The notes below the pieces were generated by a model, which was given only the letters and a program-made list of their open reading frames with translations, ran no database searches and was not told the DNA's origin. Positions 44,649 to 55,636 of a stretch of DNA of 64,000 bases are shown piece by piece. A program made the translations under genes and the position numbers. Source of the stretch: Gloeobacterales cyanobacterium (GTDB lineage Bacteria; Cyanobacteriota; Cyanobacteriia; Gloeobacterales; PMM-0068); the NCBI GenBank assembly GCA_038245785.1, contig JBBRSB010000002.1:224001-288000 (forward strand), in the 5' to 3' direction. Position 1 is the first letter of the stretch, and each line of letters starts with the position of its first letter.

Positions 44649-45941
44649 CTATTCTTCTATAGCCTTATCTTGAATGATCCAGGTTTTCAAGATAGTTGCT
44701 TGTTCATTTGTTAGCGCTCCGTTACGATTGCCCCGTGAAAGATTGCTGGCATCGGTACTGGTAGACGAAGCTGCATTATTTTGCAAGCTGTCTGCGGAAC
44801 TCGCAAGTCCCGTAGAGCCCGTAGTTGTGGGAGGAGCTACCGTTCCAAAGGGATCGGCAGTGGGCGTTCCTGCCCCGCTCCCAATCACTTTATCTCCTCG
44901 TTGGCGGAGACCGGCCTTAGGAAGAATGCCTGGCCCTCCCGTCCCTCCACCACTAGAATGGAGAGCTAGCCACTTGGGATTAAGAAGCTCACCTCCTGTT
45001 CCTGGAGTGACATACTTCAAGACTTTCGCATAGGTATCCAATTCCGAGCGATTTCGTTGGCTACCATTGGGATTGTGACAACTGGTACAGGTGTTTGCCA
45101 GCATCGCTTGGATATCTTTCTTGTAGGTGTATTGAGGCTCTGTAGTGAACTTGACTTTAATCGGTTTTTTAAGGAGCTCCTCTTTAGGGCCAGCCACGGT
45201 GACAGTGTACTCAGTACTGTAATCTAAGTGAGACTGAGGCGTAAATTGATAGGTTGTATTCGTAAGGGATTCACTGCCTCCCTTGGGTGGAGGTGTAATT
45301 TGGACCCCTAAACTCTTAGCATCCGGCACCGCTAAGTCTTTAAAACTAAGTGCAATCGGGGTGTTGACTGGAACTCTCTTACTATCTGCTTTTGGAGTGC
45401 TGGAGAGAAGTTGGCTGCTCTGCGGTTCAGCCGTTGTCCCTGTTGGTTTAGCTTCTGGGGAAGTTGGCTTGCCTTCGGTCGTATTTTTATCTTTGGTAGG
45501 AGCTTGAGCTGGAATCGTGGTTTGGGATGAGTCTTGCAGTAAGCTTGCGGTTTCGGTAAACACTCGGCTATAGGGCAACAAAGAAGATGGTTGGCGGGAC
45601 CAATCGGCACGAGATATCCGTACATCCATCAAAGGAAATACACTGCTCCGACTTTTCACCCCGATTTGGATATAGCCTTCCCCTGCTCCTGAGGCAAAAA
45701 GTGGTAACAACAGAGAACGAGCGCTCTGTTCTCCTCGACGGACAAGTTGCGGAAATTTCTCTCCGGGTAGTGCTGTGATCGTCGTTCCTGTGCTGTTTAA
45801 GGGAGCTTGCGCTAGAACATTTTGAGCGAGGGTGGGCATCGGCTTTGTTAAGCCTTGGGACAATTCCCCTCCGGTCAAGAGAAACATGATTCCTAATACA
45901 CCTTTTGCCATAGGACGTAGGTTCATGATTCTATTGCGCAC
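44649..45941 (-). CDS. Secreted protein with an Ig-like (Big_5/SbsA-type) domain and a c-type cytochrome domain
   Basis: Signal-like N-terminus, VPVNTPI.LSF...FTP...L.YSTEYTV...FTT, then Y.KDI...CTSCH and LT.EQ..ILK.WI. Confidence 0.72.
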   Translation of the reverse strand: MRNRIMNLRPMAKGVLGIMFLLTGGELSQGLTKPMPTLAQNVLAQAPLNSTGTTITALPGEKFPQLVRRGEQSARSLLLPLFASGAGEGYIQIGVKSRSSVFPLMDVRISRADWSRQPSSLLPYSRVFTETASLLQDSSQTTIPAQAPTKDKNTTEGKPTSPEAKPTGTTAEPQSSQLLSSTPKADSKRVPVNTPIALSFKDLAVPDAKSLGVQITPPPKGGSESLTNTTYQFTPQSHLDYSTEYTVTVAGPKEELLKKPIKVKFTTEPQYTYKKDIQAMLANTCTSCHNPNGSQRNRSELDTYAKVLKYVTPGTGGELLNPKWLALHSSGGGTGGPGILPKAGLRQRGDKVIGSGAGTPTADPFGTVAPPTTTGSTGLASSADSLQNNAASSTSTDASNLSRGNRNGALTNEQATILKTWIIQDKAIEE

Positions 45942-47273: not shown

Positions 47274-47564
47274 ATGATAGAGGAATCATCGCGTGTAAGC
47301 TGGTTTGATCAAGATAGAGGCCCTACATATCTCTCTGAATACTTTCAGCGAATGGATTCTTGGCAGAGGGCTATGACAGATGGAAAGATTACTCCAGAAG
47401 AGATGCGGGACCAAGCCAGTCATGTGATTGCATTGCTTAAAGAAGTGGAGCCTATGGTAAGCGAGGCTGAACACAAGCTCATCACAGAAGCGCTTTATGA
47501 AATGGCGGTACTACAGGCGATGCAAGCTTCTGCTGTCACCAGTTCCCTTCAAAAAAGCGAGTAA
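47274..47564 (+). CDS. Hypothetical helical protein (domain X)
   Basis: Clear paralogy to the C-terminus of 48032..48760. Confidence 0.85.
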   Translation: MIEESSRVSWFDQDRGPTYLSEYFQRMDSWQRAMTDGKITPEEMRDQASHVIALLKEVEPMVSEAEHKLITEALYEMAVLQAMQASAVTSSLQKSE

Positions 47565-47576
47565 GGAATCACTACT

Positions 47577-48029
47577 ATGAAAGTCAAAGCGTATCAAATT
47601 CCAGATACTTCACCTCAATATTTGGCAACATCTATAGAGTCATGGTTTCGCACTGAAGGCTTCGAAACCCAAACTCTATCAGGTCCTGAAAATACCTTCA
47701 TTGTTCAAGGCAGAAAGGACAATCTAATCCGATTTTTCTTTGGGCTTTCAGCAGCACTCACGGTTACTGTTGGTACACAACCTGACGGTGCCTTAACTAT
47801 TGCTACTGGCTCTGGGAGTTGGATTGACAAATACTTAGCGGGCTTTGCGGGTGTTTTTCTGTTTGCGCCCTTTGCTTTTACAGCTGCTTACGGCGTATGG
47901 CAGCAGGATAACCTTGAAGAGAAGCTCTGGTTGTACATTGTCAAGCGTCTTCCTGGTGCTGTTGAAGTGGCAGTCCAGGTACCTGCTTCACCCTTCCAAC
48001 CTGTTAAATTAGCGCCCTCAGGAGAATAG
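47577..48029 (+). CDS. Hypothetical membrane protein (domain Y)
   Basis: Clear paralogy to the N-terminus of 48032..48760; RBS AAGGA. Confidence 0.85.
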   Translation: MKVKAYQIPDTSPQYLATSIESWFRTEGFETQTLSGPENTFIVQGRKDNLIRFFFGLSAALTVTVGTQPDGALTIATGSGSWIDKYLAGFAGVFLFAPFAFTAAYGVWQQDNLEEKLWLYIVKRLPGAVEVAVQVPASPFQPVKLAPSGE

Positions 48030-48031
48030 TC

Positions 48032-48760
48032 ATGCAAACACGTACCTATAATGCGCCAGGGCTGACAGACGAGGAACTTGCAGAGAAAATGCGGCTTTGG
48101 TTCGTAAGCCATGATTACGAAACTCAGCTGTTGCGCCTGCCGAATGAAAGCATCGTAGTCCAAGGTTACAGAGATGATATCTGGCGTGTAGCTTTCGGTC
48201 TCGCTGCTGCACTAACCATCCAGATCAAGTCTTTACCCGACCAGTCTCTCGAAGTTACTATTGGTGCAGGAGCCTGGGGAGACAAGCTTTTTGTGGCCGG
48301 TATTGGACTGTTGCTATTTTTACCTTTAATCTTGCCGGCGGCCTGGGGCACATGGGAGCAATATCATCTCGACAGAGAAGTCTGGGATTTCATTGAGTCA
48401 GCGCTATCTACGGGAGGCGTATCCACCGAGCAAGCAGCTCCTACTTCTTTAACTCCCGACGAACTACCGAAAGCCTGGTTTAATGAAGAGACTAATGAAA
48501 TTTATTCGGCTCAATTTTTCCAGCGCATGGAATCATGGCAAAGGGCTGTTGCTGATGGTCGGATTGACCCGGAAGAGATTCAAGCGCAAGGAGAACGGGT
48601 GTCTGGCTTACTAAAGCACATTGATTCAAGTGTCAGTGACGAAGTCCATGCGAAACTCTCGGAGACTTTTTCTGAATTTGCAGTACTACAGGGTATGCAA
48701 GCCTATGCTATCCAACAACATATTGGCGAGAATGCCCCAAGTTCAAGCACAGCAGCCTAG
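48032..48760 (+). CDS. Hypothetical Y-X fusion protein
   Basis: N-half is similar to the 47577 gene and C-half to the 47274 gene; RBS AGGAG. Confidence 0.87.
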   Translation: MQTRTYNAPGLTDEELAEKMRLWFVSHDYETQLLRLPNESIVVQGYRDDIWRVAFGLAAALTIQIKSLPDQSLEVTIGAGAWGDKLFVAGIGLLLFLPLILPAAWGTWEQYHLDREVWDFIESALSTGGVSTEQAAPTSLTPDELPKAWFNEETNEIYSAQFFQRMESWQRAVADGRIDPEEIQAQGERVSGLLKHIDSSVSDEVHAKLSETFSEFAVLQGMQAYAIQQHIGENAPSSSTAA

Positions 48761-48768
48761 GCTCCCTG

Positions 48769-48833
48769 TACCCCTCAGTCCCTGCGGGACAGCTCCCCTC
48801 CTAGGGGAGCTGTCCCGCAGGGACTGAGGGGTA
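48769..48833. repeat. Perfect 31-bp inverted repeat with a 3-nt loop (REP-like)
   Basis: TACCCCTCAGTCCCTGCGGGACAGCTCCCCT-CCT-AGGGGAGCTGTCCCGCAGGGACTGAGGGGTA between convergent genes. Confidence 0.92.
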
Positions 48834-50930
48834 TCAAGTTCCCGGCACAACCTTCACAGGCGCAGGCGACGGCGGGGGAGAAACATTAAAAGTCGGAGAA
48901 TTTTGAGGACTGGTGGCGGGTTGTTGTGATGTAGGGCTATTGGGAGCTGCAGGTTGTTGCGGAGTAGATGCAGGTTGCTGCAGCGCCGGAGAATTCGATT
49001 TATCGACTGGATCTAGGGTCGGCACAGAAGCTTGAGGAGCCCGGCTTAGATAGGGTGTGATATATACCAGCAGTTGATTATGGGTCTTTTCCTCTCTAGT
49101 ATCGCTGAAGAATTCTCCAACTAGCGGTAAATACCCCAACAGAGGCAAGCGCGTTTTTACTTCGTTAACATTCTCTTGGATTAATCCACCAATTTCTAAG
49201 GTTTGACCATCTTCTAGAATCAATTTATTAGTGACTTTTCTCCGGTTTACATCAGGAGCTACATCTACACTGTCTCTTCTTCCAGGGACGGAGGATTCAA
49301 TGCTGAGGGAAGCAAATACTTTGCCATCCCCACGAATAACAGGCTCAATCTCAATAACATTTCCAGCTCGAATGGTCTGGAATTGACTGCTGACAGATGA
49401 AGTGCCTCCTGTACTGATAGGCGTTGTGATACGCACATTGATATCTTGGCTAACATCGATCGAGGCTTTTTGACCACTCATGGTAGTCAGCTTCGTATCC
49501 GTTAGAACTCTCCCTTTATTCTCTGTAACCAAGCCTTGGACAATGCTCAATGCACGAGCTATGTTGTTCAAGGAAGAAAAGCCATTGGCCCCTGCCCCCG
49601 CGAGCGAGCTAGCTAGACTGATAGGATTTGCATCACCACCTTGAACTCCTGTTGCATTCGAGGCAGCAGCTTTTAGAATATTGAAGTCTCTATTACCATC
49701 ATCGTTTAACTGATAAGCCTTGACCGAAAAACTAACTTGCTGGATTGGAGTATCTACAGAACGCACAAAACTTTTTATACTCGTCTGGAAGTTTGAGGGA
49801 CCTGAGACGATCAGGGCATTACGGGCAGCATCCACCTTAATCCCTTGAGAACGGGTATCCGGAGGAAGAGAAGCCAATACATCTTTAGCATCACTATGGA
49901 CTAGCTTAAGCACTTGCACATCATCAAAATTGCGAGCGGTGGGAGAACCAGGAGTAGCATCTCCTACTCGATAGGTATCGCCATCCCGAATAAATCCAAA
50001 GTTAGTCCCGAGCAGTAATTGCTTGAGCGCATCCTCGAACGGTCTTGAAACCAAACGGGCCGTTACAGGTTCGGACAACTCACCGTTGATTACAATATCA
50101 ACCCCCACTTGATTCGCCATTTCCTGCAGCGTTACATTGAGCGGGGTGGAATTGGCAACAACAGAAACCAATCTGCGGGCGGGATCTCCTTGAAATTCTT
50201 TGGGGTTCAAAGACCGCAAGGGATTAGGGTTACTCCCGCCACCACCAGAAGCGTTAGGCTGCGGCGCCCCAGGCTGGCTAACTACAAAAATATCTCCTAC
50301 TTTTTCACTGCGGAGACCGGCGGCACTGGTCAAAGACTTTAGCGCTTCATCAAAAGTGGTGTTTTCTAGATTCAGCGTCACTTTCCCCTTTACTTCTTGA
50401 TTAGTGACAATACTGGTTTTAGAGACTCGACTCAGAAGCGTCAAAGCATCCCGCACATCCCCATCCCGCACCTTAAGGTTGACCCGAGGACCTGTTTTCG
50501 AGGGCTGGGAAGCAGGCTGTACGAATAAAGATGGGTTATCCAAAGACTTCGCAATCGGTTCTGCTGGCTTAATAGACTCCAGCACTAGCCCAGAATTCTG
50601 CTTATTTTGCTTAAAGATATAAGCCAAGCCATTGCCCGAAAAGTCCACGGTCATCTGTACCCCCTGAGCATTCTCAGCTAGGTTCACGCGGCCTACATTG
50701 GCCGTGTATTGGGGACTGAGAGAACCTATCTTGGCTCCAGGTAGGAGCACGACTACTTGTTTGGCATCTTGCTTCAGCACGCGATAGCCAAATGTTTCAT
50801 TGGCCGATAGTTCCAAGCCATTGTTGGTTGGATTCAATTGCGTCAGGGTGGGGGTCGCCAGGAGAGGAAGCTGAGTGGAAAGAAGTACTCCTAATACCGT
50901 CAGTGCAGAACTGAGCATTGTCTTGTTCAT
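48834..50930 (-). CDS. Secretin (GspD/PilQ family)
   Basis: Signal peptide, two STN/N0-like domains, N3 (D...NALIV.G) and secretin C-terminus (DGQTL.IGGLI, LPLLG.LP.VG.FF). Confidence 0.9.
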   Translation of the reverse strand: MNKTMLSSALTVLGVLLSTQLPLLATPTLTQLNPTNNGLELSANETFGYRVLKQDAKQVVVLLPGAKIGSLSPQYTANVGRVNLAENAQGVQMTVDFSGNGLAYIFKQNKQNSGLVLESIKPAEPIAKSLDNPSLFVQPASQPSKTGPRVNLKVRDGDVRDALTLLSRVSKTSIVTNQEVKGKVTLNLENTTFDEALKSLTSAAGLRSEKVGDIFVVSQPGAPQPNASGGGGSNPNPLRSLNPKEFQGDPARRLVSVVANSTPLNVTLQEMANQVGVDIVINGELSEPVTARLVSRPFEDALKQLLLGTNFGFIRDGDTYRVGDATPGSPTARNFDDVQVLKLVHSDAKDVLASLPPDTRSQGIKVDAARNALIVSGPSNFQTSIKSFVRSVDTPIQQVSFSVKAYQLNDDGNRDFNILKAAASNATGVQGGDANPISLASSLAGAGANGFSSLNNIARALSIVQGLVTENKGRVLTDTKLTTMSGQKASIDVSQDINVRITTPISTGGTSSVSSQFQTIRAGNVIEIEPVIRGDGKVFASLSIESSVPGRRDSVDVAPDVNRRKVTNKLILEDGQTLEIGGLIQENVNEVKTRLPLLGYLPLVGEFFSDTREEKTHNQLLVYITPYLSRAPQASVPTLDPVDKSNSPALQQPASTPQQPAAPNSPTSQQPATSPQNSPTFNVSPPPSPAPVKVVPGT

Positions 50931-52045
50931 GGGAGCTTGAGCACCTGTCGTTGTTTACCTTTGGTGAGGGTGACCGTTTCATCCGTGATGATAGCGACCG
51001 TCCATCCCTCTATGGCCGCGCCTACTTGCACTTCTGCCGTAAGGGGCTGATCTCCAACCCGCACAATGGCAAACTTTGTTTTTCCGTCTGTGGCCACTCC
51101 CTCTAAAGAAAGTACTGCTGGCAGCACTTTGGGCGGCGGCGGCAAAGGTTGAGGCTTTGGCGCTGCTACTGGTTTTGGCGCGACCACTGGCTTGGGTTTT
51201 GGCGCTTTAGGATAAGCGGGCGAAAAGGGATTTTGGGGACCACCCGCTGCAGTTCCGGTTTCGGAGCTAGAAGCAAGAGGAGACATATAGGATTCGCTGG
51301 GAGATTGAGGAGAGGTTGTCTCTGGCGCAGTTGTTCCCTTTTGATTGTTAGGACTCGCTGTACTTGGACTATCCGCAGGAGCAGCCTCTGGCACATACCC
51401 TGGCCCAGGCTTAGAGGAATCGCCTGAGGGTGCCCCAGGTGATACTCGAGACCGCATGGGCCGTACCGGGATAGGGGAGTTTGAGGTCGCAGGAGGGGTG
51501 GATGTTGCCGTAGTATTATTCTTCCCTGCTAGGGCACTCGGTTGCGCATCTAAATTTTTAGGAATGCTATTGGCTGTCCAGAGCACCCCTACACCCAGAA
51601 CAACGACCGCTGCCGCCGTAACATAGCCCCACGATGGGACATTTTGCCAAATATCAGAGGTAAGTTTTTTGGGCTGCAGTAAATTTTTCGAGGGACCCGG
51701 TGGGGAGGGCGTCTGGGGAACTGTTGGGGACCGATAAGCAGATTGATCGGCTATGTCCCGATACGTAGATGGGGCGGGTGTATCTCTGTCTTCCCAGGGC
51801 AAAGGCGCAGAGGAAGTGGTTCTCGAATTGGCTGCTCCTGCTCCCGCTTGCCACGGGAAAGCATCATCGGCACTAGGTAGCTGAGGACTGGAAGAGGGTT
51901 GTTCTGTCTCGCCTTCGGCTATCTCACCGCTCATGAAAACGTCTTCTCCATAAGAGATCGACGCATCAGCATCATCGCCTATAAAAGGCTCTTCCCACGG
52001 AGCGCGGGGGCGTTTTGGATCTTCTGTGGGAAACGGCTGGCTCAT
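50927..52045 (-). CDS. Bitopic Pro/Ser-rich protein with a C-terminal GspC/PilP-like beta domain
   Basis: Single TM, NPF.P, and C-terminal L.GV....FAIV...V.VG..I.GW.V..I....VTL. Confidence 0.65.
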   Translation of the reverse strand: MSQPFPTEDPKRPRAPWEEPFIGDDADASISYGEDVFMSGEIAEGETEQPSSSPQLPSADDAFPWQAGAGAANSRTTSSAPLPWEDRDTPAPSTYRDIADQSAYRSPTVPQTPSPPGPSKNLLQPKKLTSDIWQNVPSWGYVTAAAVVVLGVGVLWTANSIPKNLDAQPSALAGKNNTTATSTPPATSNSPIPVRPMRSRVSPGAPSGDSSKPGPGYVPEAAPADSPSTASPNNQKGTTAPETTSPQSPSESYMSPLASSSETGTAAGGPQNPFSPAYPKAPKPKPVVAPKPVAAPKPQPLPPPPKVLPAVLSLEGVATDGKTKFAIVRVGDQPLTAEVQVGAAIEGWTVAIITDETVTLTKGKQRQVLKLP

Positions 52046-52047
52046 AG

Positions 52048-53604
52048 TCAGATAGTCACTACCCTGAGAACTTCTTCAATAGAGGTTTTTCCTTCCATTA
52101 CTTTTTGTACTGCTGATTGGTTAAGAGAACGCTCACCCAAGTTTTGTTCCAGATGGTCCCGCATCTGTTGCTCACTCGCACGGTCACGAATCATCTGTCT
52201 CAGCGGTCCATCTACAGGCATCATTTCAAATATTCCTTCTCGACCGAGATAGCCCATATGATTGCACAGATCGCAACCCACAGGCTTTTGCCAACGGGTA
52301 GCAGAAGGGACCTTTTCTATGCCTAAACGGCGAATATCCAAGGGGTTAGGCTCATATTCCTGACAACAATGAGGACAGATCTTACGAACCAGACGCTGGG
52401 CCACAACCCCTAGCAAAGAGGCCGCCAGCAAATAGGGCTCAATTCCCATATCTAAGAGACGATTAACCGTACTGGGTGCATCGTTGGTATGTAGAGTACT
52501 CAAAACCAAGTGACCCGTGACCGCAGCTTGAAAGACCGTCTGGGCCGTCTCTAAGTCACGAATTTCTCCCACCATAATCACGTCTGGATCTTGACGCAGG
52601 ATGGACCGCAATCCAGAGGCAAACGTCAAACCAGCTTTTGGATTCACCTGGACTTGATTGACCGAAGAAAGTTGATACTCTATCGGGTCTTCAATAGTAA
52701 CGATGTTCTTAGTGGGCGTCAGGACATTCATCAATCCGGCATAGAGCGTACTGGTTTTTCCTGAACCTGTAGGCCCTGTGATCAATACCAAGCCCTGGCT
52801 ATAGCCCAACCATGAGCGAAACCGTTTGAGTTGCTCAAAGGAAAAACCGACTTCTTCAATCTGAAAGGATTGAGTTTTGGGCAAAAGACGGATAACTGCT
52901 TTTTCCCCATGGAGACAAGGCAAGGTACTCACCCGCAGGTCTACTTCCACCTGTCCAAAACGCTCTGTAGAGCGGCCATCCTGAGGTGTCCGCTGATTCG
53001 CAATATCGAGTTCTGCCAAAACTTTTACGCGCGCCAGGACCACTTTGCTTAAATTGGGCGACATCAAAGCTACTTCTTTGAGCAAGCCATCTATACGAAA
53101 ACGCACCAGCAATCCCTGGGGCATCGGTTCAAAGTGAATATCAGAAGCTCGACACTCGAGAGCATCCAGAATAAGTTGGCGGACCTGTTCAGAGATCTGA
53201 CGTTCATCCAACTCTGCACCAACGGTAGTCATCACTTTGGATGGCTTGTTCGATGGCTCAGGGGAGCGCATAGAAGAAAATGGAGGAGCAGAGAGAGAGG
53301 CAGCAGAATCTGCTACTCCTTTCAGATGCTCATAGCAACATTCCTGCCAGAGTGCGTAGTCCTCCATATCCAGGAGGGTCCACTCTATCGGAGGATTCTT
53401 TAGTTTTTGGCTCAAGTTCGCCTGTACAAAAGCGTCTACTGGTTCAAAGTGCCCCAAATATAAGGTCGGAGCAACATAACTCAGCGGAACAATGTCCCTC
53501 AAAGCCTCCCCAAGAATATTGCGCAGAGAGAGGATTAGTCGGTCATCTAGTGCATAGTCACGAAGAAATGCACGCGTAGATTGTAGGGGAGAGGGAGGAG
53601 TCAT
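52048..53604 (-). CDS. GspE/PilB-family assembly ATPase
   Basis: ASDIHFEP, PQDGR, GPTGSGKT, TIEDPIEY, LRQDPD..MVGEIRD and two CxxC pairs. Confidence 0.95.
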   Translation of the reverse strand: MTPPSPLQSTRAFLRDYALDDRLILSLRNILGEALRDIVPLSYVAPTLYLGHFEPVDAFVQANLSQKLKNPPIEWTLLDMEDYALWQECCYEHLKGVADSAASLSAPPFSSMRSPEPSNKPSKVMTTVGAELDERQISEQVRQLILDALECRASDIHFEPMPQGLLVRFRIDGLLKEVALMSPNLSKVVLARVKVLAELDIANQRTPQDGRSTERFGQVEVDLRVSTLPCLHGEKAVIRLLPKTQSFQIEEVGFSFEQLKRFRSWLGYSQGLVLITGPTGSGKTSTLYAGLMNVLTPTKNIVTIEDPIEYQLSSVNQVQVNPKAGLTFASGLRSILRQDPDVIMVGEIRDLETAQTVFQAAVTGHLVLSTLHTNDAPSTVNRLLDMGIEPYLLAASLLGVVAQRLVRKICPHCCQEYEPNPLDIRRLGIEKVPSATRWQKPVGCDLCNHMGYLGREGIFEMMPVDGPLRQMIRDRASEQQMRDHLEQNLGERSLNQSAVQKVMEGKTSIEEVLRVVTI

Positions 53605-53857
53605 AGATCAAAAACTTTATTGTTTACTTTGTATAGTTCCTTGACATCTGTCTAGGTTAACAGGCCTTTTTCAAGGGTCCAGGTAATTTGCGTCACTTGT
53701 GACGGACAAATATAACGCATTTAGCCCCTGATCGTCGTCGGTAATGATGCCCTATGGTTAGGTAGAAATTAAGTGGAAATATAGATCGGGTAGGGTCAGA
53801 GCTTTCGTCTTAAACTTACAACAGGTGCAGCAGGTCTTCAATTAATTAATCTGAATT

Positions 53858-54385
53858 ATGAACACTCCCAAGCGCCCCGCTCAAGGGTTTGCCCTCTTAG
53901 AAGTCATTGTTTCAGTGGTGGTGGGAACGCTTGTTTTAGCTTTCCTGGTACGCCCTTTGAGTGCTGCCTTGATCAACCGTCTGCAGAGTGACCAGATCGC
54001 ACAAGCAACTGAATTGGCCCAAGAGCAGGTGGAACTGGTACAGCACACTTGGCGAGACAATCCCAGCCTTTTGCCATCCTATGGAAGCGATGAGACAACC
54101 CCTTTCAGGGCCATTGCTACAGACGCCCGCCTCGGAATCTTGAGTGATCCAAACTTAGTGCCTATGGACCATCCTGATATTCAGAGCGTTGGTATTGACC
54201 AAAATCAAGATGGGAAAGCTGATTTTATCCTGCAATGCTTCGCGGGCAAGTCGCCCAATCTCACGGAAGTAGGTTCTCAAACCCAACGTTCGGTAGTTCG
54301 TATCTACAAAGCACCCCTCAAACCAGAAGATTCACCTAAACCTCTGGCCCTAATCGTGAATGATATTTACGTGGGTAAGTCATGA
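53858..54385 (+). CDS. Type IV prepilin-like protein
   Basis: Class III signal QG|FALLE. Confidence 0.85.
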   Translation: MNTPKRPAQGFALLEVIVSVVVGTLVLAFLVRPLSAALINRLQSDQIAQATELAQEQVELVQHTWRDNPSLLPSYGSDETTPFRAIATDARLGILSDPNLVPMDHPDIQSVGIDQNQDGKADFILQCFAGKSPNLTEVGSQTQRSVVRIYKAPLKPEDSPKPLALIVNDIYVGKS

Positions 54386-54939
54386 AGCTTTGGGACTATG
54401 GCTATAAAAAGCGTCTCAACGCAGGATTCACGCTGGTTGAAGTCCTGATTACTATTAGTGTGATGGGTATTCTTGCCAGTGTCGCCATTCCCAATATCGT
54501 AGGCTTACTGGAGCGCCAGCAGCTACAGCAAGGCATTGGGCAAGTAGAATCGCTACTTCATCAGGCTCGTCAGTATGCACTCAGTCAAGGAGTGACTACT
54601 TCCGTTCAGTTTGATGAACAGAACAACACGATCACGGCTTGTGAAAGCACGCTTGAATCTCAGTGCAATGGGCGAACTATCCAGACGCTACAGCTAGGTT
54701 CAATAGAACTCATCAAGAGTGCTTTGCAAGGCCCAAAGGGTGAACCTGACCGCAGTCTAGCCTTTGACTTTAGAGGATATCTGCTTACCCCCGAAGATGT
54801 CCTACAGCCGATTACGCTCAGACATTCCCGAAATCTGAATCTCACTCGTAGCATTTACCTCGTTTCGATTTTAGGAACAACCTGGGATGCTCCAGCCGCC
54901 GCCATTCCTGAGAATGAGAGCGTGCCCAATGCCTCATAG
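54382..54939 (+). CDS. GspH/FimT-like pseudopilin
   Basis: AG|FTLVE, L..AR..A and FD.RG. Confidence 0.88.
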   Translation: MKLWDYGYKKRLNAGFTLVEVLITISVMGILASVAIPNIVGLLERQQLQQGIGQVESLLHQARQYALSQGVTTSVQFDEQNNTITACESTLESQCNGRTIQTLQLGSIELIKSALQGPKGEPDRSLAFDFRGYLLTPEDVLQPITLRHSRNLNLTRSIYLVSILGTTWDAPAAAIPENESVPNAS

Positions 54940-55636
54940 AATATTCAAGCTCAGAAAAAATCGTGGGGTAACAGGAGTAAGCCTTGTAGAACTTTTGGTG
55001 GCGGTGGTTATCTCTGGCATTATTATCTCCGCCATGATTGGAGCCTTTGTCACCACAGCAGGTAAGAGTGTCAAAGAAAGACGCCTAGCTGAAATTCAAG
55101 AAGAAAATCATCTAGCCTTAGATTTGATGAGCACTGAAATCCAAGAGGCTGCTTGGATTTCCAAAGACAGTGGGAAACTCTTAGAACTACCCAATGGCAA
55201 AGTAGTCTTTAGCCTATTACTACCTTCTGCCCAAGGTTATTCGTTAGTCGTGTATGCCCTATCGGCACCGACCGAAGAATTGTCCCCCGTACTCCAATCT
55301 TATCTTGCCAAATTGCAGTCACCGATAGCCCTTTATCGTTGGCAGTCAGTGCCTTTAGATCTTGATCCGAAAGACCCTATCTTTCCCCAAAAAGTTGCTC
55401 CTGACCTCAAACAACCCCAACTCGTAACAGCCTTTTTGCGCTCATCACCAGCGTTAGGAGGTGAACCAGCGCTCCGCTTTCTAGAAGAGCAAAAAGATGG
55501 AACTATTGCCGGAGGAGAACTCATCCTTAGAGGAGATAATCCAAGCCAACCCTGTGCAGACATAGGCGCAGATATAAACTGTGCCAATTTAGAAATAGCG
55601 ACCAGAGCATACAGTAGAAATATTCAGCCACCATAA
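54929..55636 (+). CDS. PilW/GspJ-like prepilin
   Basis: TG|VSLVELLV and AL..M..EI.EA. Confidence 0.82.
   Translation: MPHRIFKLRKNRGVTGVSLVELLVAVVISGIIISAMIGAFVTTAGKSVKERRLAEIQEENHLALDLMSTEIQEAAWISKDSGKLLELPNGKVVFSLLLPSAQGYSLVVYALSAPTEELSPVLQSYLAKLQSPIALYRWQSVPLDLDPKDPIFPQKVAPDLKQPQLVTAFLRSSPALGGEPALRFLEEQKDGTIAGGELILRGDNPSQPCADIGADINCANLEIATRAYSRNIQPP

Follow-up and report, generated by a model that had tools for sequence, protein, structure and literature searches.

We have identified in a cyanobacterium of the order Gloeobacterales a real, old and selected three-gene unit that is assembled from two unnamed, widespread partner domains, which we call X and Y. The genes lie in a window of 64,000 nucleotides (positions 224,001 to 288,000 of contig JBBRSB010000002.1, assembly GCA_038245785.1) and encode a free X, a free Y and a protein, YX, in which a second copy of each domain (Y′ and X′) is fused. 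From the predicted folds, the domain partners and the gene linkage described below, the X and Y families probably assemble into a platform at the membrane's inner face.

The trio and its conservation in the Gloeobacterales

The first-pass annotation described three tightly packed, co-directional genes preceded by sites resembling ribosome-binding sites, and this description is borne out by the open reading frames (Table 1), by intergenic gaps of 12 nt (X/Y) and 2 nt (Y/YX), and by the motifs AAGGA, AAGGA and AGGAG upstream of the ATG codons of X, Y and YX, respectively. It had also matched the first gene to the C-terminal half of the third, and the second gene to the N-terminal half. Alignment confirmed both relationships, with 45% identity (36/80, E 4e-25) between X and residues 148–227 of YX and 35% identity (49/139, E 3e-27) between residues 1–138 of Y and 1–139 of YX, and the motifs that it quoted are invariant or near-invariant columns. 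A tblastn search of the whole assembly with the three proteins revealed no further copies, and close homologs were found in Gloeobacter, Anthocerotibacter and Cyanaurora.

Table 1. Positions of the three genes and the downstream hairpin in the window
Feature	Coordinates	Strand	Description
Gene X	47274..47564	+	ORF, 96 aa
Gene Y	47577..48029	+	ORF, 150 aa
Gene YX	48032..48760	+	242 aa; Y′ (1–127), variable linker (128–146), X′ (147–230)
32-bp hairpin	48768..48834	.	lies after YX and before the convergent secretin gene; folding energy −75 kcal/mol (z −11)

All 14 Gloeobacterales genomes gave matches, and X, Y and YX occur in the same order in 13 of them, separated by −4 to 16 nt; the remaining assembly (G309) is split into 530 contigs, and in it X and the tail of YX are located at the ends of contigs and no Y was seen. 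The flanks of the trio vary by family (here an AI-2E transporter and a secretin; in another family, DUF218 and glyoxalase genes), and X, Y and YX therefore stay together as one unit. A second X+YX locus that lacks a free Y is present in four genomes of one family, and all seven genomes of another family carry a solo X paralog. This solo X (Gsr1549-type) is located directly after a coaBC-type gene in the five loci that we read (L046–L050); an unnamed coiled-coil gene was observed after X in four of the five, with a Ser/Thr kinase gene further on. Kinase genes occur near some copies (L042, L045, L046–49) and are not a conserved neighbour of the trio. Identical NCBI records identify Glr4061 and Glr4062 of Gloeobacter violaceus as orthologs of Y and YX, and Gsr1549 as the solo X; all are annotated as hypothetical.

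Might the trio be a redundant relic of an ancient duplication, one copy of which is decaying? We computed dN/dS for the four domains in seven close genome pairs, and obtained 27 of the 28 values. The three highest (0.22, 0.29 and 0.54, the last resting on a dS of 0.04) all belong to X′ in a single genus, which, together with the four second loci that lack a free Y, is what a decaying copy might leave. However, 24 of the 27 values are below 0.2, indicating purifying selection on all four domains; all frames are intact in 13 genomes; and free Y is the most conserved part, with a mean identity among 13 orthologs of 75.5%, compared with 61.5% for X, 66% for Y′, 68% for X′ and 30% for the linker. 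Furthermore, free Y and fused Y′ form separate groups (SH-aLRT 95–99, joined at 91–92) in quick, short trees that are indicative only, and because these supported groups span the order, the split between Y and Y′ is older than the sampled order. The relic explanation is thus highly improbable, and is already largely refuted by the selection analysis. Two findings that the first-pass annotation would have counted against its own proposal, relaxed selection on one copy and the absence of the trio or its fusion from other genomes, were not made: every copy remains under selection, X′ being the least constrained domain, and the trio is present in 13 of 14 genomes.

The hairpin downstream of YX is not specific to the operon. 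It is formed by the ends, now joined, of a dispersed DUF559-type mobile repeat, with 67 related sites (after merging) in the assembly, many of them arranged as paired inverted ends 110–400 nt apart around decayed sequence; one such pair (G000:C59:8564-9044, L074) encloses a DUF559 ORF (E 4e-26). These repeats are a family of small mobile elements together with their collapsed footprints. The copy downstream of YX may act as a terminator, and a promoter and terminator scan of the locus gave results at chance level. In small shares of two RNA runs, one 236-nt and one 129-nt contig piece covered X of an orthologous locus, and no pieces covered its Y or YX. Elsewhere in the window, a 430-aa protein encoded on the minus strand (44649–45941) has an Ig-like (Big_5) domain and a single motif resembling a CxxCH haem-binding site, and is conserved in a genome of the same genus. 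The region at 48834–55636 is an ordinary type II/IV pilus cluster on the minus strand, comprising a secretin (by Pfam), a Pro-rich accessory gene and a pilus/secretion ATPase-like gene (both by eye), and points away from plus-strand ORFs that, by eye, resemble pilins.

Two widespread families and their linkage

The first-pass annotation could name no family for either domain, and our searches of Pfam, NCBIfam, PADLOC and PDB sequences agree, returning nothing over the cut-off for the X or the Y domain. PDB sequence matches obtained with relatives were discounted, being due to the zinc ribbons of fused members, and the ESM Atlas gave only unnamed clusters (at 0.91–0.92). A profile of 17 fusions matched 1,077 protein clusters (50% identity) at E ≤ 0.001, and 359 at 1e-10, the X and Y families being taken together. 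Among the best 150 of the 1,077 clusters, Y is present in 140 and X alone in 10. The partners found in the 140 Y representatives are CxxC zinc ribbons (65), TIR_2 (13), SHOCT (8) and GYF_2 (3), and more rarely protein kinase (2), HhH (2), FHA (1), CHAT (1) and TPR (1). In P0086, a kinase is N-terminal and SHOCT C-terminal to Y, and in P0100 Y again lies C-terminal to a Ser/Thr kinase. Judged from these architectures, Y is probably a promiscuous anchor for signalling domains. The TIR_2-linker-Y proteins (P0042, P0104, P0107, P0126, P0133, P0135, P0140, P0142, P0147, P0153, P0156, P0157 and P0173, the last of which also carries HAAS) are candidates for membrane-anchored TIR signalling or defence.

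Both domains are combined in nine of the best 150 representatives: two are of the Gloeobacterales type, four are other Y-X fusions (one from a named member of the Chloroflexia), and three have the order X-Y. The proteins are P0027–30 for fused Y-X and P0032, P0034, P0118 and P0266 for fused X-Y, the fourth X-Y having come from a separate search; a search for longer X fusions gave two, both already known. Because an AU test did not reject the placement of every fusion's Y domain in a single group (p 0.43), the opposite domain orders are the sole argument for independent fusion.

How closely does X accompany Y outside the cyanobacteria? We surveyed 20 genome loci retrieved with an alignment of the Anaerolineae-type X, 10 of them non-cyanobacterial, as well as metagenome loci; both sets are partly redundant and biased by the query. 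Y adjoins X in nine of the 10 non-cyanobacterial genome loci (eight X-then-Y, one Y-then-X), mostly as a Y with a double zinc ribbon (DZR), and is adjacent or fused to X in 39 of 45 metagenome loci. Among the six without Y, three have less than 200 nt downstream, one is cut off upstream (L188, with no Y downstream), and the other two have enough sequence but lack Y; overall, three informative loci (L062, L167 and L195) contain X with no Y next to it. X was found in none of 300 other Chloroflexota genomes, yet in 3/3 genomes of one order, and Y in 47 of the 300. Two Y genes lie within 2 kb of each other in 13 of these 47 genomes, and the tandem loci that we read typically pair a short Y with a downstream Y-(zinc ribbon)-Pro-rich-FHA gene, with FHA confirmed in 6/6 scanned. 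More distant Y genes are located upstream of FhaA/FHA genes (three loci scanned). Therefore, X is nearly always accompanied by Y, Y does not depend on X, and the layout of a free Y followed by a Y fusion recurs with other cargo. The ancestral unit looks like an X-Y pair.

Several further features were observed at these loci. A PadR-family regulator gene in the opposite orientation lies near tandem Y/Y-FHA genes in L081, L084–L088, L092 and L093 (confirmed by Pfam in L081 only). In Anaerolineae-type loci (L053–L060, L155–L189), the genes downstream of X and Y-DZR often include one for a two-helix membrane protein that bears a double zinc ribbon, and in 12 loci one for a multi-pass membrane protein of approximately 667 aa, which has no Pfam hit and only a weak match to a PrsW fragment. 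X, Y-DZR and two membrane genes are a possible four-gene form of the system. The first-pass annotation had suggested that homolog neighbourhoods be surveyed for SPFH, Psp, Ter or defence genes; in the neighbourhoods read and the subset of neighbours scanned, none of these recurs.

Within the phylum, the trio was not found outside the Gloeobacterales in the 300 other Cyanobacteriota genomes searched. In the same set, the X profile gave nothing beyond one weak motif match, in G271 (E 1.1e-4, 35 columns), which has no Y nearby and was not counted as X. The Y profile matched in 14 of the 300, one match being a fragment, and all 13 full-length Y proteins are encoded by lone genes and carry C-terminal SHOCT repeats over the Pfam cut-off.

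Predicted folds of Y and X

In a model built from an alignment of 99 sequences (pLDDT 81.5, about 50 over residues 81–100), Y has five strands and two flanking helices (E2-7, H13-26, E30-35, E41-47, E59-67, E73-79, H102-123). It is thus predicted to consist of a KA1/TBP-like alpha/beta domain (1–127), with an apolar segment at 86–109, and a C-terminal tail; the tail is conserved only in free Y of the Gloeobacterales. The best fold matches (Z 8.5–9.2, rmsd 2.5–3.8) are KA1 and KA1-like domains, and four of the top 11 matches are chains titled KA1 (Z 7.9–9.0). The Chk1 KA1 domain (Z 9.0, rmsd 3.0, 92 aligned residues) shares with the Y model the order beta-alpha-beta-beta-beta-beta-alpha, and METTL16 VCR (Z 9.2), SOS2 (9.0), SAD-B (8.6) and MARK3 (8.5) also matched. 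The METTL16 VCR, SOS2 and AMPK C-terminal domains are KA1-like. A Z of 9.2 is middling, since unmatched models typically reach 7–8, and a Foldseek search with the Y model gave no match at E < 0.001. In contrast to the KA1 domains, with which it shares 6–12% identity, Y is bacterial, carries 24 additional apolar residues ahead of the last helix and is here not fused to a kinase; Pfam KA1 matched neither Y, YX nor the 150 relatives, and PDB sequences gave no match to the Y domain. We therefore predict a KA1-like fold for Y at the level of the fold only, and a shared fold shows no function. KA1 domains bind acidic phospholipids, and the net positive charge of Y residues 47–58 in 79 of 99 members is a hint only of binding of this type.

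The most characteristic feature of Y is the Gly-rich, apolar insert of 24 residues at 86–109, which is flanked by W82-D84-K85 and G106-Q110, carries no more than one charge in 95 of the 99 members and contains Pro98 in 94%; the best 19-residue hydropathy of Y is at least 1.6 in 81 of 99. The hydrophobic hairpin proposed for Y in the first-pass annotation therefore holds as an apolar, Pro-kinked segment conserved across the 99 members, and Y has no hydrophobic N-terminus. In the model, the segment lies between the last strand and the last helix of one compact domain, which suggests that both of its ends are on the same side of the membrane, and the occurrence of kinase or TIR domains before Y and SHOCT or FHA domains after it suggests that both ends are cytoplasmic. 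The segment is therefore most simply modelled as a re-entrant membrane hairpin.

Could the apolar segment instead serve a lipid or another hydrophobic ligand? It might close a pocket like that of START/helix-grip proteins or sort lipids such as hopanoids in the single photosynthetic membrane, and helix-grip/START and BamC-type folds are indeed found among the weaker matches of Y (Z 6.3–7.9). In addition, genes resembling squalene-hopene cyclase and squalene synthase (identified by eye) lie near the trio in two to four loci, including L067. However, these neighbours reflect family-specific synteny, the partners of Y elsewhere are signalling domains, and the model falls short of the full helix-grip strand count. 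We regard this explanation as quite unlikely.

X is predicted to be an acidic, soluble three-helix protein, with a WF motif, a helix at 18–33, an ADG-x-I-x-x-EE loop and helices at 41–61 and 64–95; the model (115 sequences, pLDDT 81.5, pTM 0.63) is an open three-helix unit. Seven columns are highly conserved (W10 100%, D36 98%, G37 98%, E43 97%, Q47 99%, H67 92%, E76 100%), and the net charge is negative in 110 of 115 aligned members. Its fold matches are generic hairpins only (best Z 6.2), and Foldseek returned a single row (E 7.3). An EF-hand reading of the loop was rejected (Pfam E 0.24, with the first ligand positions missing).

Two known families come close to X. First, TerB (PF05099) shares with X the ADG..E loop, as a motif only, and the first-pass annotation had been reminded of TerB by DG.I..EE. 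In hhalign, X matched TerB with a probability of 38% (E 3.4e-4), over 16 columns only, with a score of 26, the highest of 60 column shuffles being 17.4, and the TerB HMM at E < 1 detected 13 of 19 X-containing proteins as opposed to 2 of 131 others, the SHOCT HMM being less enriched (three X hits). Second, in SHOCT (PF09851), the unit helix-G-x-I-x-x-E-helix aligns in register with X 26–50; the hhalign probability is 43% (E 2.4e-4, 25 columns, from 11 of the 12 loci after removal of a near-duplicate), the score of 20.8 exceeds the highest of 60 shuffles (14.1), and the SHOCT HMM matched 12 of 115 X members at E < 0.01 (Z=1). SHOCT also resembles X′ in position, being C-terminal to Y in the 13/13 other cyanobacterial Y proteins and in 8 of the 140 representatives. 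Nevertheless, SHOCT is a two-helix unit of approximately 30 aa, whereas X has approximately 85 aa, a WF motif, two long helices and a gene of its own, and Pfam SHOCT (cut-off 27 bits) was found neither in X, YX or the genome nor among the 25 families listed for 115 X members. TerB, for its part, is a duplicated helical domain of approximately 118 aa, as opposed to an X core of approximately 85 aa with one motif, and true TerB genes are located elsewhere in 14/14 Gloeobacterales genomes. The TerB likeness thus stands as a weak profile signal, and SHOCT fits about as well; the top 50 fold matches of the X monomer model contain no TerB chain, which does not in itself exclude the fold. To judge from these profile comparisons, the sequence letters favour TerB and the position in the protein favours SHOCT, and X is in neither family by score.

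This likeness raises the possibility of a metal- or ion-stress sensor of the TerB type, in which X and X′, each a half-TerB, would pair into an acidic site (D36, E43, H67, E76) held at the membrane by Y and Y′. Such a site would fit the conservation of A35-D36-G37 and E43 (92–98%), the hhalign score above shuffles and the weak enrichment of the TerB HMM, and one X member has been automatically named ‘tellurite resistance protein’. However, the match spans the 16 columns mentioned above, Pfam TerB was found in 3 of 115 X members (best E 0.0097, below the cut-off of 24.4 bits), no ter genes recur nearby, and the helices of X at 41–61 and 64–95 are longer than TerB repeats. We consider such a sensor unlikely.

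A putative sub-membrane scaffold

What, then, might the trio do? Our preferred reading, which we hold tentatively and with somewhat less than even confidence, is a sub-membrane scaffold of Y and Y′ with X and X′ as its adaptor, serving signalling or envelope upkeep; its folds are predicted, and its insertion, oligomerisation, binding and role are inferred. Y and Y′, KA1-fold proteins that have no signal peptide, would dip into the cytoplasmic leaflet by the re-entrant hairpin of 24 residues and would co-assemble into a monotopic hetero-oligomer. X would be a dedicated helical partner of Y/Y′, the YX fusion would fix one X′ at the membrane assembly, and free X, like the solo X paralog found in one family, could exchange or pair with X′, or bind Y. 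X would thereby take the slot that SHOCT, zinc-ribbon or FHA tails occupy on Y elsewhere, and the platform would most likely serve membrane-proximal signalling or envelope upkeep. We favour the scaffold because the trio is conserved while its flanks change, X and Y are linked and fused, the apolar segment lies within a compact domain, and the arrangement ‘free Y, then Y fusion’ is recurrent. This reading is further supported by the lone Y genes with SHOCT repeats of other cyanobacteria (13/13) and by the proposal, in the accessible text of PMC11237479, that SHOCT-like domains are inner-leaflet anchors for other domains. Against it stand the middling KA1 match, the weak match of X to SHOCT and the fact that most Y genes occur without X; in the accessible part of another study, a SHOCT peptide did not oligomerise a reporter (PMC3581485).

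We also considered that the trio might be an anti-phage or conflict system, in which the Y oligomer would be a membrane-disrupting or signalling assembly restrained or triggered by X. TIR_2 in 13 of 140 Y representatives and CHAT in one are in keeping with this idea, and a Gly-rich apolar hairpin could suit a pore former. However, the trio is near-universal, vertical and single-copy, is under purifying selection and has housekeeping flanks, unlike patchy defence loci. Moreover, PADLOC 2.0 recognised none of the three trio proteins and none of 99 relatives, X has no relative in viral contigs, and Y has no viral fold match at E < 0.001. A defence role is quite improbable in our judgement, and less likely than the scaffold.

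SPFH proteins are hairpin-anchored membrane proteins. The SPFH/band-7 and Psp scaffolds, as far as they are covered in the accessible text of PMC11237479, follow a logic similar to that of the proposed scaffold, with a hairpin-anchored oligomer and zinc-ribbon and SHOCT partners, but the trio matches neither SPFH nor PspA in sequence or fold, and Band-7, PspA, PspC and Toastrack were absent from the trio and the recurring neighbours scanned. By analogy, the trio most plausibly works like sub-membrane scaffolds of the SHOCT/SPFH type, yet it lies outside every family tested. Full-text literature searches, whose coverage excluded supplements and most subscription journals, gave no description of the operon or of either domain, and the terms sought do not occur in PMC8195603 or PMC7159879; supplements to domain surveys could list Y or X under another name.

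A far-reaching possibility, which we regard as a long shot, is that Y proteins represent unrecognised prokaryotic, self-assembling, monotopic organisers of KA1 fold that tether TIR, kinase, FHA, caspase-like and SHOCT domains to the inner leaflet, and that X-Y-YX is the Gloeobacterales-wide organiser of the single photosynthetic membrane, lost or replaced when thylakoids arose. The accessible text of PMC13326532, which treats genes gained rather than genes lost, regards the organisation of one membrane for photosynthesis as an open question. The retention of the trio by thylakoid-less cyanobacteria bears on this organisation, and because orthologs exist in a cultured species (Glr4061 and Glr4062), its role is testable. 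More broadly, our analysis provides a first functional handle for two unnamed families, namely a probable membrane anchor common to TIR, kinase, FHA and SHOCT proteins and its small partner, and a KA1-like domain that follows Ser/Thr kinases in bacteria would have implications for how the eukaryotic KA1 domain arose.
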